Of a stretch of 34,901 nt of DNA, positions 3,700 to 30,010 are shown piece after piece. The stretch covers positions 1 through 34,901 of the forward strand of contig NW_021829926.1 of assembly GCF_006345805.1 (NCBI RefSeq). The letters run 5' to 3'. Numbering within the stretch: the first letter of the stretch is position 1; each line of letters starts with the position of its first letter. The stretch is from Octopus sinensis. Taxonomy: Eukaryota. The translations under genes and the position numbers were made by a program. The notes beneath the pieces were generated by a model. It had not been told where the DNA came from and made no database searches. It was given only the letters and a program-made list of their open reading frames with translations.

Positions 3700-3942
3700 C
3701 ATCCAACCATTTTGACGTCACTCCTTATAAAGGAATTTTTAAAGAAACACTCATTATCACTATGGGCTCCGTGTGAGCAGTCATCGAAAAGTTTTTGTGC
3801 ATCTTGATGTTGACATAAGTTCCTTGCTTTTCCTGATGAGAAAGCGGCATAATATACTCCTTATTCCTTCGCAATTAGGAATATGCAGCCTTCGAAACAA
3901 TAAAGGAATTTTGTTAATTCGTCGTTCAACTCCATTCTTTCA
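3700..3942 (+). mobile_element. PLE 3'-end (pseudo-LTR-like) fragment between TA tracts
   Basis: It carries an HHR. The upstream frame reads GIFKETLII, resembling the GIY-YIG C-terminal KExLxI motif. The 3' motif CGTTCAACTCCATTCTTTCA resembles 19559-19578. Confidence 0.6.
3820..3908 (+). ncRNA. Type I hammerhead ribozyme motif with long stem II (stems I and III imperfect)
   Basis: CTGATGA at 3833-3839 and GAAAC at 3894-3898. Stem II GAAAGCGGCATA/TATGCAGCCTTC pairs 10 of 12 positions. TTCCTT/AAGGAA flanks can pair. Confidence 0.7.
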
Positions 3943-4299
3943 TATATATATATATATATCTTTTATTTATACATATACATACATACATGCATACATATAC
4001 ACACATATGCACACGCACATATATTTAATCACAATTTCTGGATTCAAGAAATCCGTTAGGACTCATAATAAATGCTCCTTAATGTATCATTGTACAAAGC
4101 ATGTTGAATATAGAGTAATATACAAGAAAAAATATAAGGAGTGTATAAAGTCATTAATGACAGAGAAATAATATGATAAACTTTTATTTAGCAAAAGAGA
4201 AATCCTAATATCACGACAAATTTCTTTCATAACTAAAAAAACATGGAAATAACTTTAAATCATATTTAATAGTGATTAAATAACTTACATTTCTATATT

Positions 4300-4497
4300 T
4301 AAGAGATGAGGAATTATCTACATTATTTACATTATTTACATTTGACGGATATTTGTCATTATCTTGTTTGTTGCTAACACAACGTTTCGGGTGATATACC
4401 CTCCAGCCTTCATCAGGTGTCTTGGAGAAATTTCAAACCTAGGTTCTCATTCCTAAGGTATTTTTCGATGTTGTTGTTGTTATTATTATTATTAATC

Positions 4498-14667: not shown

Positions 14668-14736
14668 ACTGCGTACAAGATCCTGTTTCAAGCTTAAAGT
14701 AAAAACATATTACTCATTGCTCTCATCAGCGACAGT
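14668..14736 (-). ncRNA. Type I hammerhead ribozyme
   Basis: Minus strand: ACUGUCG-CUGAUGA-GAGC..AGUAA..UUACU..GCUU-GAA-ACAG(GAUC)UUGU-A-CGCAGU. All three stems form. The GUA triplet predicts a cut between 14674 and 14673. Confidence 0.82.
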
Positions 14737-14949: not shown

Positions 14950-16190
14950 AAAATCATTAATAATTTTACCCTAAACCTCTAAAATCATTAATAATTTTAC
15001 TCTAAACCTATCTATCACACTCGAAAACGCTCACAAAACTGCTAACCTTCTTGACGCAACTTTAAACTTATCAATCTCCCAATACTCTCCGTACCACAAA
15101 CCTAACCAATATCTTAAATAGCTTAACATTCACTCCAGTTACCACAAATCCACTTTCGATAACATAATTAAGGGCATCTCAACCCGCACATCCGACCTCT
15201 CTTCCACTGAGTAAATTTTCAATAATCCCGCACCATATTATTATCAAACACTCGCCACTAGCAGCTTTTCCCAACAAATAGAATACATCCATAACACCAG
15301 GCTCAAAAAATACATATCACAAATCACATCTCAAACACGCACCAACCATCATAATCGCAACCAACCACACACATTCGTCGATGGAACTCTGGAAGGATTT
15401 AAACATAGGCTACCTAGACTACCCCCCCACACACACTTTCATTTAACACTATGTGAAAAACGAAAGCAGCAACAGGCCTCACCACTCATATATTCTCCAA
15501 CAATATAGATAGCACTCCTTTATCGAAAAACTTACATAGTGCTGCTCCCAGATCCCCTAAAAAAGCAGCAGACGCTCTATTCTGTGGTACGCACCCCCAT
15601 GCTCACTTAACGTTAAGAACTTAGCTAAATCCTTCTTTAAAATACTAGACTCTAACTTCCCTCGGCAACATAAATATCATTCTATCTTTAATTGATCCAC
15701 TCTGAAACTATCTTCTACCCCACCCAACTTCGAATCTATTGTAGCAGCCTCTAATAAGCAAAAGCTTTCTCTTTGCTCTCAAAACTCACATAATTACAAC
15801 TCTAGTCATACGAACACTCAACACACACACAGCTCCAGCACAGATACCCTTACATTAGACCATAACCACAGCTCAACCCATCCTACTGACACTGTCCGGA
15901 ACACCATCACAATCTCTACCACCCTTAATAGTAATAATAACAACAATGTTAATGATAACGTTAATAATACTAATAATCTAAAATCTTCTATCCCCTTCTC
16001 TAACCTCTCCTCTGACGCTATTACCTCCGCTATTCCTGAACACATTCCCCAAAATTCACCAAACTGTAATTGCCGTGTGGAACCACCTGCCCGTTACAAA
16101 TCTATTGCAGAATAATAATGTAATTTACAAATGCACTGTCCTTAATCTATTACACAACTCTACAGTCATATACATAGGATCAACCATAAG
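14950..16190 (+). mobile_element. Decayed Penelope-like retroelement (Naiad-type): RT C-terminus/thumb, linker and start of GIY-YIG endonuclease
   Basis: Manual translation gives LSITLENAHKTANLLDATLNL..YSPYHKPN (from 15008), ILWYAPPCSLNVKNLAKSFFKILDSNFPRQHKYHSIFN*STLKLS (~15580-15715) and CNCR..TCPL..C..NVIYKCTV...IYIGST (~16065-16185). It contains stops and frameshifts. Confidence 0.88.
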
Positions 16191-18762: not shown

Positions 18763-19251
18763 CTATGTTATATTAAATTCCTACTTTTATTTACAATATT
18801 AACATATTTATTTACGATATTAACAGGCGTAGGAGAGGCTGTGTGGTAAGTAGCTTGCTTACCAACCACATGCTTCCGGGTTCAGTCCCACTGCGTGGCA
18901 CCTTGGGCAAGTGTCTTCTACTATAGCCTCGGGTCGACCTTGTGAGTGGATTTGGTAGACGGAAACTGAAAGAAGCCCGTCGTATATATGTGTATATATA
19001 TATATATATATAACTATTTATATATATATATATATATATTATGTGAAATAGAAAGATGAATAATCTTGTAGTAGATTAATCAAAAGTTTAACCGATACCT
19101 TAGTAGCAAAAATCACAGCAGTAAACAGCACGGTTGGAGGTACAACCATCTGGCGTAGCAACCGTGCGTTGGTGCGGATAATTGAAATTAAAACATTATT
19201 GGTGAATTGAAGAAATGGAGCTGAACGCAGATTGAACAGAAATCGTTTTAT

Positions 19252-19337
19252 TTCATTCTACACGTGTTTCGAAAGGCACAAATACCAAAATCCGATTGAA
19301 TAATGGGACCATATTGTGTCTTTCTCTTCAGGAAGAA
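19252..19337 (-). ncRNA. Type I hammerhead ribozyme (left arm of palindrome)
   Basis: Reverse complement of 19448-19534. Confidence 0.85.
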
Positions 19338-19447
19338 AAAAGAAATCCGTTGGAAAAACAAAAACAGAACAGATGCGGAGCAAAAACAAATCGATTTGTT
19401 TTTGCTCCGCATCTGTTCTGTTTTTGTTTTCCAACGGATTTCCTTTT

Positions 19448-19534
19448 TTCTTCCTGAAGAGAAAGACACAATATGGTCCCATTATTCAATCGGATTTTGG
19501 TAATTTGTGCCTTTCGAAACACGTGTAGAATGAA
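19448..19534 (+). ncRNA. Type I hammerhead ribozyme (right arm of palindrome)
   Basis: UUCUUC-CUGAAGA(19454-60)-GAAAGaCACAA..UUGUGcCUUUC-GAA-ACACGUGU-A(19527)-GAAuGAA. Stem II pairs 10 of 11 positions, stem III is palindromic and the cleavage triplet is GUA. Confidence 0.87.
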
Positions 19535-21537
19535 ATAAAACGATTTCTGTTCAATCTGCGTTCAGCTCCATTTCTTCAATTCACCAATAATGTTTTATAT
19601 ATATATATATATATTATATATATATATATATATGTGTGTGTGTATGTTTGTGTGTTGTATTTGTTCCCCATAACATCGCTTGACAACCGATGCTGGTGTG
19701 TTTATGTCCCCGTAACTTAGCGGTTCGGCAAAAAGAGAACCGATAGAATAAGTACTAGGCTTACAAAGAATAAGTCCTGGGGTCGATTTGCTCGACTAAA
19801 GGCGGTGCTCCAGCATGGCCTCAGTCAAATGACTGAAACAAGTAAAAGAGTAAAAGAGTATATATTTATAAGCTGTTATAAAATTTAGCTTACATTTACG
19901 ATAAGGTTACAAAGATAATAGATGTGATATAGGGGAATACATCTGTGACCACGTTGTAGATAGAAGCACGGTGAACATTTTTAGCGATTCATAGTGTATA
20001 GAACTATTCGGAAATGGAGCAATCAATAGGATACATGTATTTTAAGTAGCTGATATTTAGTAGCAAAATTGATCTGACATAAATATACTGTACTATAACG
20101 ATATAGAGGTGGCTTTTGTCACTACATGTGCAATCGCTTTATATTTTCTTTGTTTAAAATAGAATTATTTAAATTTTCAAAGAATTCTTTCTTGTAATTA
20201 GTTTTCAGAAGTATCTAGCTATTTTTATACTAACTCCAGTTTCCAGTTTCTTTTTTGGTTTTTGTACCAAAATGCCTAATAAATAGTTAAATAAGGCCTT
20301 ACACATATTGTAAAGTGGTGATCAATGGGGATAGTAGAATATCACTTGTTAGTAGAGTATCCAGGCCTAGACTGGATCGGTCTAGTTTATATATGCATGT
20401 TCGAATATATCTCGAAGCACACACACATAAAGCTGATAACGACAGACTGTAGAAATTGAGCTGAAAATCCCTCTTGGATAGAAAAAGAAGGAGGCTGTCT
20501 TTCTATTGAAAATGTGTTTCAACTCAGTATTTACACGTATTTGCTTATAGCTTTATGTGTGTGCTTCGAAATATACTATTCCAAAATCAAATACGTTATG
20601 CTCTCCTAGAAGTTAAGAAAATTCTTGTGACGTCAACTGTATATGTTTTTGTGTACTTATGTATGTATGTGTGCATTTGTGTGTGGTGTGTATGTATGTA
20701 CGTACGTGTATGTATGTACGTACGTGTATGTACGGGTGTGTGAATGTGTTTTCTGAAGGACTGAGAAGAATTCTGTAGTTCTAATACTTTATTACATTCA
20801 TGATTGCAGAATGAATTCTTTGCAAAAAGCGATGGCGTTTGTTTACATTTAAGGTATTTCTGTGCCGAAGAAAGAATCAATATTTAATAAGATAAAAATG
20901 TAAAAAAAACATAGGGTGCTGAACAATGTATAAGGAATACCCCCGTAAGATGTCAACCCGGGGAGAAGGAAAGTAAATTAAACAGATGATTTAGAAAGAT
21001 CGCAAATGAAAAGATAGGGGATGCAGACAAGTTACAAGAAGCGATGATGAAATAAAATATATGTTAACGCACGGAGCGCACGGAGATGTAAAAAGACTTA
21101 AACCGTATATGTGGTTATCAAACATAGCCACAACAAACTAATTCATTTGGAAAATATAAATAAGCGTAAAGAGAGCGGAACGGAGAAAATATAAACATTG
21201 AGTTTGACAAAGAAGTCAGTAAAGTTTCAGAACATGAGAGTTTGAGTAAATGAGGAAATGATTTTGAAGTATATTCTGCCAGTTTAATAATAATAAGTAT
21301 GGAGATGTAATTATTAAACATGGCTCCCGCTGAACCACAAGCAACGCTGTAACCAATGAGAAAGCTTTATTTAGGCTTGCGATATGGTTCAGGCATTTTT
21401 AGCTGTATTCTCTATTTAACGTGAGCTTAAATGTAATTTGTTGGATATTATTAGAGATGAAGGAAAAAAAATAAAACAAAATGGAAAGAAAAATGAACTA
21501 TAAATGAAACACAAATAAAAATCAATTATGTGAAAGA

Positions 21538-22868: not shown

Positions 22869-23557
22869 AAAAGTTGTATTAATTTTTCGGTAATTCATTC
22901 AAAAGAAATATGTCCGATTAGTGCGGATGATGTATGTTGAAATTAGTCCGCAGTATACGAAAATAGACATACACGGAAGATCTATATCTAGACATAATGT
23001 TAAATTTTCTGGTACGCATTACAGAAAAAGAAAAGACCGCAGGAAAATCGTCATGAACGAAGAAGAAATAATTGACTTTCTCATAGTTTTTATATCATGT
23101 TTTTTTATTGACTTACATCAGCATAAACAATATATAATTATATGATTTTACAGAGAGTCGTTTTTAAATATTATAAAATGAATGTTAATTCCGATTAATA
23201 TATATTTTCAACTAGTCATTTCTGACTTGCAATGTCATCTCTGCATTGAAGTCTGCATCTGTTTCCATCTCCGGTTACTTGTAAAATTCTAACGATATTA
23301 TCGAGTTCTTTATTTATCTTGTACTCTGCCTTGTACCTCAGTTTCCTCACACTCATGTTCCTCGTCTTAATTCTAACGGTGTTCATTAATGAACCCCACA
23401 TTATATGATTCAGGAAGTTCGCTGACATTACTGCCGTTTATTTGGGATATTCGGAGGAGTCAAACAAATTGGGTAATTTCTGGGTTGAAATTTAAGTACC
23501 ATGTTATAGCCCTTGTTTTAGAGTACCGTAGAGATTACTATATTTTACAATATAGTA

Positions 23558-24037
23558 AGGTCATCTGGTCATCAAATCTAAGTAGAGACTTCAAACTTGA
23601 AATCTTCAAAGCCACAGTCGAACCAATTCTACTATATGGTTCAGAAACCTGGACGTTATCAAAGAAGCTTGAGAGGTGGTTGGATGGAACCTACACTCGC
23701 CTCCTTATGAGAGCTCAAAATCTCTTGTGGAAGCGTCATCCAACCAAAATGCAAATATATGGGAAACTACCACCTGTGTCATCTCTTGTGAAAGGTACGA
23801 GAGTCCAGTTTGCTGGACATTGGTGTAGAGCTGAAAACGAGGCAAGTTCTACTCTTCTCCCCTGGAAGCCATCTGATCGCAATACCAGAGGGCGCACACT
23901 CTCCTACCCTGATGTAATCTCCAGGGATACAGGCATCCAGCAACAGGACCTCCGTAATGCTATGATGGACCGTGAAGTCTGGCGTAGCATTGTAAATTCC
24001 ATTGTCTCGACCACGGTCGAACAATGATGATGATGAT
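23558..24037 (+). mobile_element. 5'-truncated RTE-type LINE: C-terminal part of the RT ORF plus (TGA)n tail
   Basis: ORF 23389..24027 contains IFKATVEPILLYGSETWTL...FAGH..R...AMMDREVWR. The stop codon runs into TGATGATGATGA. A hairpin TCGACC-AC-GGTCGA lies at 24007-24020. Confidence 0.9.
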
Positions 24038-29293: not shown

Positions 29294-30010
29294 TTAAAGA
29301 CTAAATAAATATAAATTAATATAAATCGCTAAAAATATAACGTGTTATGTGAGTCACCAATCTAGCTTTAAAGTGAATATATTATAGAGGATTCTATGCC
29401 CTGGTGTACAACGTAGAATTATAAATAGATAGTTCGGTTAATCGGAGTATTTTAATTAAAAATTGTGATGTGATGTTAAATTATGCTCTGTGGTAAGTGT
29501 GATGGTTAGGGGAGATAATATGATGTTAGGCTGGTCAGCAAGTAACCTATAATGTAGGTATTAGCAGTATTTAGAGAATAATAATTTATCTTTATGCAAT
29601 CATGTTCTATTTTTCTCGTCTCGTTCATTAATTAATAATGATTTGGCCATTAAAATGAAGAATTTCTCATTTGTGCATAAATTACACCGTTTTTTTAAGG
29701 TTATATGGAGATGTTTTGGGTAGGATATGCCATTCTAATCTATAATTTAGGTTTTTGTCTTTCAGTTCCCAGATTTAACTATTTAGTCCCTAGAGATGTC
29801 TTTACCTCTATTTCTGAAATCTGAGCGATGGGAATTATATCTAAGTTTCATTTCATTTTTAGTTGCTCCAATATAAGTTTTCTTGTAATTATTTGCGAGT
29901 ACATCACATTGGTAGATTACGTTTTTAGTTTTACATTCATTTAATAATTCACAAGTATTTTTATCTCTGCAGCAACACAGGTTAGTAAGATTATCTGTGC
30001 CTATGATATA
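29290..30010 (-). mobile_element. Decayed Naiad-type PLE: GIY-YIG endonuclease (30010-29561) plus 3' region
   Basis: Manual translation: CCCRDKNTCELLNECKTKNVIYQCDV..KTYIGATKNEMKLRYNSHRSDFRN /fs/ IWELKDKNLNYRLEWHIL..SPYN /fs/ RCNLCTNEKFFIL..LINERDEKNRT*LHKDKLLFSKYC*. Confidence 0.92.

Follow-up and report, generated by a model that had tools for sequence, protein, structure and literature searches.

A double-hammerhead palindrome in Octopus sinensis as a stump of a Hydra-like Penelope element and its probable origin by twin priming

The stretch of Octopus sinensis DNA analyzed here, referred to as the window, comprises 34,901 nucleotides (contig NW_021829926.1, positions 1 to 34,901). It contains a palindrome with a hammerhead ribozyme motif on each strand, which we are confident represents an insertion, truncated at its 5′ end, of a Hydra-like Penelope element that is young (copies about 99% identical) and targets (TA)n. 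The palindrome probably arose by twin priming, in which one template was primed at two fixed sites and the two cDNAs were joined via microhomology; the paired ribozymes would then be a by-product of joining two cDNA copies of one element head to head. The palindrome is real in the assembly and ordinary in kind, one of hundreds of stumps and not a device. The locus itself is hence of little weight and the family matters more. Papers are cited below by their PMC numbers and are represented by parts of their text, to which our statements about them apply.

The palindrome and its presence in the assembly

Mirror alignment placed the center of the palindrome between positions 19392 and 19393, without any spacer. 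The first-pass annotation had described two head-to-head units of about 204 bp that differ by 1-nt indels alone, and the alignment bears this out, with arms of 204 and 205 nt that show no substitution and three single-base indels. The features are as follows.

18983..19040, (TA)n target, left flank
19041..19392, minus strand, tail-bearing arm, the last ~352 nt of the element (pseudo-LTR end, hammerhead, tail), terminus at family site 2; 98.9% to the full-length relative L039 over 354 nt
19041..19188, minus strand, tail between the two family ends, ~148 nt (family comparison)
19087..19099, minus strand, 5′ half of a predicted 13-bp long-range stem, partner missing in the window copy (fold of L039:2545-2775, z -2.4)
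19128..19167, minus strand, predicted tail hairpin (fold; z -2.2 for 19041-19200)
19189-19392, left arm of the palindrome, 204 nt (arm alignment)
19251..19338, minus strand, type I hammerhead motif of the tail-bearing arm; core 19331-19325, GAAA 19270-19267, predicted cut after 19259
19391..19394, junction TCGA, self-complementary and native to the element; 4-nt microhomology of both arms (arm starts)
19393-19597, right arm of the palindrome, 205 nt (arm alignment)
19393..19597, plus strand, tail-less inverted arm, terminus at family site 1; 99.0% to L039 over 208 nt
19447..19535, plus strand, type I hammerhead motif; core 19454-19460, GAAA 19516-19519, predicted cut after 19527
19598..19633, (TA)n target, right flank

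Both arms of the window copy (L001) start at element position -1 and overlap by the TCGA. A palindrome of such regularity might be suspected to be a fold-back artefact of sequencing or assembly, a reading to which we give very little credence. Its arms differ by just the three indels, the exact 32-nt junction occurs a single time in the 2.7-Gb assembly, the contig is unplaced, and none of the contigs of four public runs, which were compared as assembled contigs and not as raw reads, bridges the center, where a hairpin contig would be short and easily clipped. A fold-back would, however, mirror the tail and the flank, whereas the actual mirror halts exactly at the family's site-1 end and leads into another (TA)n flank, as in 26 of 28 other insertions described below. 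Each of the three indels is a run one base shorter than in the other family copies, as in long-read error, and the public-run contigs cover the unique flanks on both sides of the palindrome. An artefact is thus unlikely because the outer ends differ and each matches an end found throughout the family.

The assembly holds no second copy of the right flank that could represent an empty allele, and any target-site duplication would be masked because the target is itself (TA)n. Very high-copy SINE-like repeats, as judged from contig depth, flank the (TA)n target at 18830-18982 and 19634-19860; similar SINE-like pairs recur around (TA)n runs at other loci.

The parent element

A query with the 352-nt arm yielded 1016 candidates in the genome, and all 40 of those that were scored matched 350-352 of the 352 query bases at 98-100% identity. 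The roughly 150-bp extension of one arm, which had been described as unique and as containing its own hairpin, does contain the hairpin. It is not unique, because the 40 scored candidates carry the same tail near end to end, and it represents the 3′ tail of the family. The terminus of the tail-bearing arm was likewise found in 30 of 30 family loci compared. Genome-wide, the hammerhead motif matched 2,878 times.

The suggestion that the palindrome is linked to Penelope-like elements (PLEs), with hammerheads in pseudo-LTRs and inverted partial copies, proved right and can be followed in L039. This natural copy consists, in order, of an inverted 737-bp arm, a partial pseudo-LTR, an ORF for reverse transcriptase (RT) and GIY-YIG endonuclease, a 3′ pseudo-LTR and the tail, and lies in (TA)n. 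The element unit is about 3.63 kb long. In other copies, the common sequence upstream of the region seen in the window leads to an ORF end with a GIY-YIG-type motif. The ORF of L039 starts about 50 nt after the tail, which forms the 5′ UTR in tandem copies. Pseudo-LTRs derived from partial tandems occur in L039, L094, L133, L134, L158 and L175. An inverted, 5′-truncated arm ending at site 1 adjoins the element at 38 of 50 loci anchored at site 2, five of which were judged by eye.

By motif and homology, the element appears to encode a single ORF with an RT plus, at its C-terminal end, a GIY-YIG endonuclease. P0002 contains DKT (QSDKTRN), FDI and YRDD, and P0003 contains VY..YVG, R, CxxC (CNLC)..E, CxH (CPH) and N. 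Fourteen unnamed homologous proteins are 35-40% identical (E 1e-46 to 1e-68). Searches of Pfam with three ORF pieces and eight aligned proteins, and of PDB by profile, returned no RT or GIY-YIG name; the RT and endonuclease calls rest on motifs and unnamed homologs. The whole frame is open in 0 of 12 long copies. Its breaks vary from copy to copy, a pattern as long-read indel errors would give.

In the L039 ORF, a long Ser/Asn-rich insert (P0003 residues ~270-395) lies where a zinc-finger linker would be expected. It recalls the Asn-rich inserts that exist in rotifer Penelopes (PMC3846280).

Two other element classes were considered and rejected. A non-LTR retrozyme does not fit, since the arms are head to head with no tandem repeat here, and the tandems of the family are 3.6-kb coding units. 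A MITE or foldback DNA transposon does not fit either, since the outer ends differ and the junctions vary between copies.

Two fixed ends, one of each per insertion

Copies of the family have one of two termini. Site 1 lies about 85 nt beyond the GAAA box, at element positions ~192-206, and site 2 lies about 146-148 nt further on. The exact site-1 end followed by (TA)n occurs 553 times in one variant, which equals the end of the tail-less arm in the window. Site-2 ends numbered 1134 on the forward strand alone, the reverse-strand count being inflated by repeated matches, and 70 read-throughs from the tail into the ORF matched an exact pattern.

Insertions were compared in three samples: 60 site-1 ends taken in genome order, to which 13 further site-1 loci were added for replication; the initial 50 non-redundant site-2 ends (40 new, 10 overlapping the other sample); and 28 divergent hammerhead pairs less than 8 kb apart among the first 100 listed of the 2878 motif matches. 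In the last sample, 26 of 28 pairs combined site 1 with site 2, none combined site 2 with site 2, and two combined site 1 with site 1, which speaks against a strict rule. Such a preference for one of each has a probability of 1.5e-6 against the 50% ceiling for independent choice. A tail was present at one end only in 26/28, and 55 of the 56 outer ends ran into (TA)n. The window copy shows the same one-of-each design with both arms short. Solo site-1 arms also occur, at 9 of 60 site-1-anchored loci as judged by eye.

Site 2 is enclosed by a predicted 13-bp stem (L039:2657-2669 with 2740-2752) that exists in tandem context only and ends 5 nt before the start codon. Both halves of this stem are retained in a sister family. 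The stem may couple priming or translation to tandem transcripts.

Arm relations and junctions

In total, 97 junctions were found. The 24 junctions of the biased first sample, the window copy included, were excluded from the position and overlap tests, which hence rest on 73. At 64 family-polymorphic columns across the 97 junctions, a minor letter was common to both arms 88 times and discordant 10 times (90%), compared with 9% sharing between loci. Of the changes private to a locus, 23 were present in both arms and 60 in one arm only. Variants shared by the arms point to a common source but not to a single molecule, since the same signal would come from two RNAs of an active locus, from tandem units or from gene conversion between arms at a later time.

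Overlaps of at least 3 nt were present at 34 of the 73 pattern-anchored junctions versus 6.5% for random joins, with lengths derived from BLAST ends, which can over-extend. In 31/73 insertions the inverted arm reached more than 30 nt further 5′ than the tailed arm, and 18 of these lacked any overlap; site 1 must therefore prime independently. Tailed arms accumulated at the 3′ foot of the tail hairpin, with 10/73 starting at element positions 264-275 and three at 207-263. At L185, a long inverted arm stops at this hairpin foot after traversing a whole unit.

Both arms share a truncation hot spot at element positions -37 to -25 (L039:5958-5970), which holds 20 of 166 arm ends versus 4.2 expected. 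It coincides with a pair of short near-palindromes, some 90 nt upstream of the ribozyme core, and may reflect the 5′ end of an RNA, a stop of the RT or a favored annealing site. Arm starts within 10 nt of each other, which lead to spacerless palindromes, were found in 13 of 83 insertions versus 2.7 by permutation (P 5e-5); with the hot spot removed, starts within 20 nt numbered 15/67 versus 2.9.

These near-equal starts bear on the main rival of twin priming, fold-back self-priming. Here, the site-2 cDNA would have bent back at its TCGA end to serve as its own template, and the resulting strand would have been cut or captured at site 1; alternatively, self-priming would have occurred on an antisense template (PMC3846280). 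For the window copy with its equal starts, fold-back of one cDNA gives an identical sequence. Across the family, the roughly fivefold enrichment of equal starts is in agreement with it, several junctions center on short palindromes of the element (L001, L022, L097, L223, L227, L231), variants shared by the arms follow automatically from self-copying, and junction palindromes were read as self-priming in PMC3846280. We nevertheless regard self-priming as unlikely. It cannot yield the 31/73 insertions whose inverted arm contains sequence that the tailed arm never copied, nor can it yield solo site-1 arms. As a site-1 end is still required, self-priming could at most form one branch of a process that uses two sites.

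The hammerhead motifs

Both arms contain CUGAAGA, a long stem II closed by G-C, GAAA, ACACGUGU and a GUA triplet. The core CUGANGA, GAAA, A15.1-U16.1, H17 and G10.1-C11.1 are present and invariant in 11/11 aligned sequences, and stem I consists of 3 bp, a bulge and 4 bp. An intact hammerhead on each strand had been claimed. This holds for the motifs of both arms only: the Rfam Hammerhead_1 check (RF00163) that the first-pass annotation had proposed aligned the motif at 14.8 bits, under the gathering score of 34, with the model skipping the long stem II, and the predicted fold is weak. Across the whole window, Rfam returned hairpin look-alikes only, all under their gathering scores.

In an isolated 106-nt piece, the hammerhead fold lies 3.4 kcal/mol above the minimum free energy, and monomer self-cleavage is predicted to be weak, with a hammerhead fold share of 1e-3. 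This agrees with reports that animal PLE ribozymes cleave poorly alone (PMC4209133); PLE ribozymes are also described as needing protein (PMC11167929). The palindromic stem III had rightly been considered fit for dimer cleavage, and the palindrome pairs between molecules in co-folding.

In a covariation test, four pairs change on both sides, three in stem II and one at the palindrome center, while the 3 bp of stem I are invariant. Of the cells, 91.6% were paired versus 27-49% in slid controls; this counts as one comparison because the sequences are in effect two families. Taken from the alignment, the ribozyme appears to be under structural constraint between families.

Is the window locus then a selected RNA device, either a self-cleavage/dsRNA switch, as had been proposed, or a source of small RNAs? 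Both hammerhead motifs are complete, the ribozyme is constrained as just described, and read-through RNA would fold into a hairpin of about 200 bp with about -370 kcal/mol. Such structures are, however, routinely left by the family: 37 of 83 two-armed insertions share double whole hammerheads, 11 of them nearly spacerless. Folding predicted the hairpin alone at every length tested, and in read-through folds ending at 19470-19545, 96-97% of the bases were paired into it, with a hammerhead share of ~1e-85. The ribozyme is predicted to be locked off because transcription of either strand reaches the antisense arm before the ribozyme, so that in these models the window ribozyme would be in an off state without balance or switch. 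We found no gene or long ORF around the palindrome in the window and no locus-specific RNA support. The window ORF list contains no frame of at least 100 aa overlapping the palindrome, as its reported absence of coding capacity implied. The window copy is too young to reveal selection, being about 99% identical to the family. Selection for a device hence seems scarcely credible. The palindrome may possibly act as an ADAR or Dicer substrate or form a cruciform, but the same holds for several hundred sister loci.

The predicted cut site is not a truncation point of the family. Among 114 arms that reach it, three end there, as compared with 2.2 expected, and 111 pass; this led us to reject ribozyme cutting as the source of truncation and argues that templates were uncut when copied. 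Arm starts at the 5′ edge of stem I (7 observed versus 4.2 expected) were not significantly enriched (P 0.13).

A twin-priming model

For the family we observed the identity of copies, two fixed ends, one of each per insertion, variants shared between arms, microhomology at junctions and (TA)n targeting. With these features, twin priming on one template could proceed as follows. The GIY-YIG endonuclease would cut both strands of (TA)n. One target 3′ end would prime at site 2, in the loop of the 13-bp stem, and the other at site 1. The hammerhead would be the normal pseudo-LTR ribozyme of a template that is uncut at the time of copying. If the polymerase starting at site 2 is halted at the foot of the tail hairpin, the arms would not overlap, as in L1 twin priming. 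Alternatively, this polymerase may pass site 1, either by pushing the first cDNA aside or by copying the following unit of a tandem RNA, and the overlapping arms would then form a palindrome. In the window copy, both cDNAs would have ended at the same base inside the TCGA of the element. Their 3′ ends would have annealed without spacer, each serving as template for the second strand of the other.

As a more general proposal, PLEs may integrate by programmed twin priming: a protein dimer and an uncut RNA, two strands primed at different fixed sites, and between these sites an unusually long, structured tail with a hairpin at which the outer polymerase stalls, so that a single rule would yield tail, inverted copy and junction palindrome. 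We give this extension an even chance. Among open-access papers, we found none that proposes twin priming for PLEs.

Comparison with known systems

Inverted pseudo-LTRs, one of which bears the tail, and palindromes at head-to-head junctions have been described, with self-priming proposed as their origin (PMC3846280). The same PLE units appear in PMC8557442, in which Penelope-13_HM is listed with hammerheads on both strands and with an inverted copy. The family studied here shares with these endonuclease-positive insertion units the 5′ truncation, partial tandems, an adjoining inverted 5′-truncated copy, junction palindromes, a tail at one end and microsatellite targets (PMC3846280; PMC8557442). 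In contrast, its tail, which contains a hairpin and measures about 148 nt (in the sister family about 130), is longer than the published PLE tail of 30-40 bp (PMC3846280; PMC8557442 fig. 2 legend), our own comparison of tail length and ribozyme shape being confined to this genome. The tail here is also entirely 5′ UTR and does not extend into the ORF start.

With the Hydra clade, which includes Hydra-1_Obim and Penelope-13_HM, the element has in common DKT instead of DKG, CxxC and CxH around the conserved E and N, (TA)n targets and a canonical type I hammerhead (PMC8557442). The CxCX5C linker is present in 7/7 aligned homologs but missing from P0003, which has the long Ser/Asn-rich stretch instead; because of this missing linker we file the element as Hydra-like and not as a member of Hydra. 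Further differences are RIRWL in P0001, i.e., RWL for RWK, the 3.6 kb unit, and a stem II arm of 55 nt, longer than in any Hydra entry in S2 of PMC8557442. The hammerhead also differs from that of Hydra-1_Obim (PMC8557442).

Like the PLE hammerheads in PMC4209133, the ribozyme predicted here is of type I, with a short stem I, a long stem II, G10.1-C11.1 and a palindromic stem/loop III fit for dimers; it differs in its much longer, bulged stem II. Dual hammerhead motifs on opposite strands, 100-700 bp apart, were reported for Schistosoma in the same paper.

A related biochemical system is Poseidon of Anolis carolinensis. In vitro, both strands were cut and extended there, the tail was delimited by two internal start sites, the template was uncut, and a dimer was predicted (PMC11167929). 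Two tail-bounding start sites, an AT-rich target, an uncut RNA template and a start site in an AC-rich stem-loop are common to both. Here, however, the sites are about 148 nt apart, and genomic insertions use one site per end, which the reported assay did not show. In that assay top and bottom strand showed no difference in start site, and the one-of-each rule is hence unexplained by it. In L1 twin priming, the second target end likewise primes internally on the same RNA and the cDNAs join by microhomology; the internal site of L1 varies and its arms overlap by 1-10 bp, (PMC11702581), whereas the octopus family uses a fixed site and the overlap of most of its arms ranges from tens to thousands of bases.

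Inverted copies, junction palindromes and opposite-strand hammerheads are thus already in print. The new content is limited to the long tail and the countable one-of-each, one-template rule. The family may already be present in Repbase/Dfam or in the supplements of a bioRxiv retrozyme preprint, and recent Penelope families were counted in an octopus, with no mention of hammerheads in the parts of PMC13282606 used here. The formation of tandem and inverted PLE structures was named unsolved in PMC8557442, and the steps after priming were left unvalidated in PMC11167929. The octopus family is young and has thousands of copies, and its start sites, about 148 nt apart, make the two ends distinguishable. 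It gives rules that can be counted and tested in vitro: one end each, one template, joins by microhomology, a stop at the tail hairpin and no stop at a ribozyme cut. Fourteen hammerhead pairs within 500 bp were present among the first 100 listed of 2878 matches; extrapolated from these, about 400 short double-hammerhead hairpins in the genome would be a possible source of dsRNA.

The sister family and other elements in the window

A tail-less arm of the sister Hydra-like family (2370 candidates) lies at 3700-3945 on the plus strand between (TA)n runs; the hammerhead of this copy is missing some 12 nt that span stem III and the cut site. Both ends occur in the sister family too, as do a homologous tail and a predicted long-range stem enclosing site 2. 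Compared with the family of the palindrome, its hammerhead shows three compensatory changes in stem II and a changed loop III that is still palindromic.

Decayed ORF pieces of the same PLE group are present at 15002-15770 (plus strand) and 29567-29992 (minus strand; tblastn E 1e-17 to 1e-6). Hammerhead-like motifs of the form CUGAUGA...GAAA occur on the minus strand at 4416, beside long (TTA)n/(AAT)n runs, and at 14729, which is 270 nt before the decayed ORF at 15002; both probably mark the ends of other PLE families. At 23377-24027 on the plus strand, a 216-aa open frame resembles by eye what we take to be the C-terminal part of a LINE ORF.
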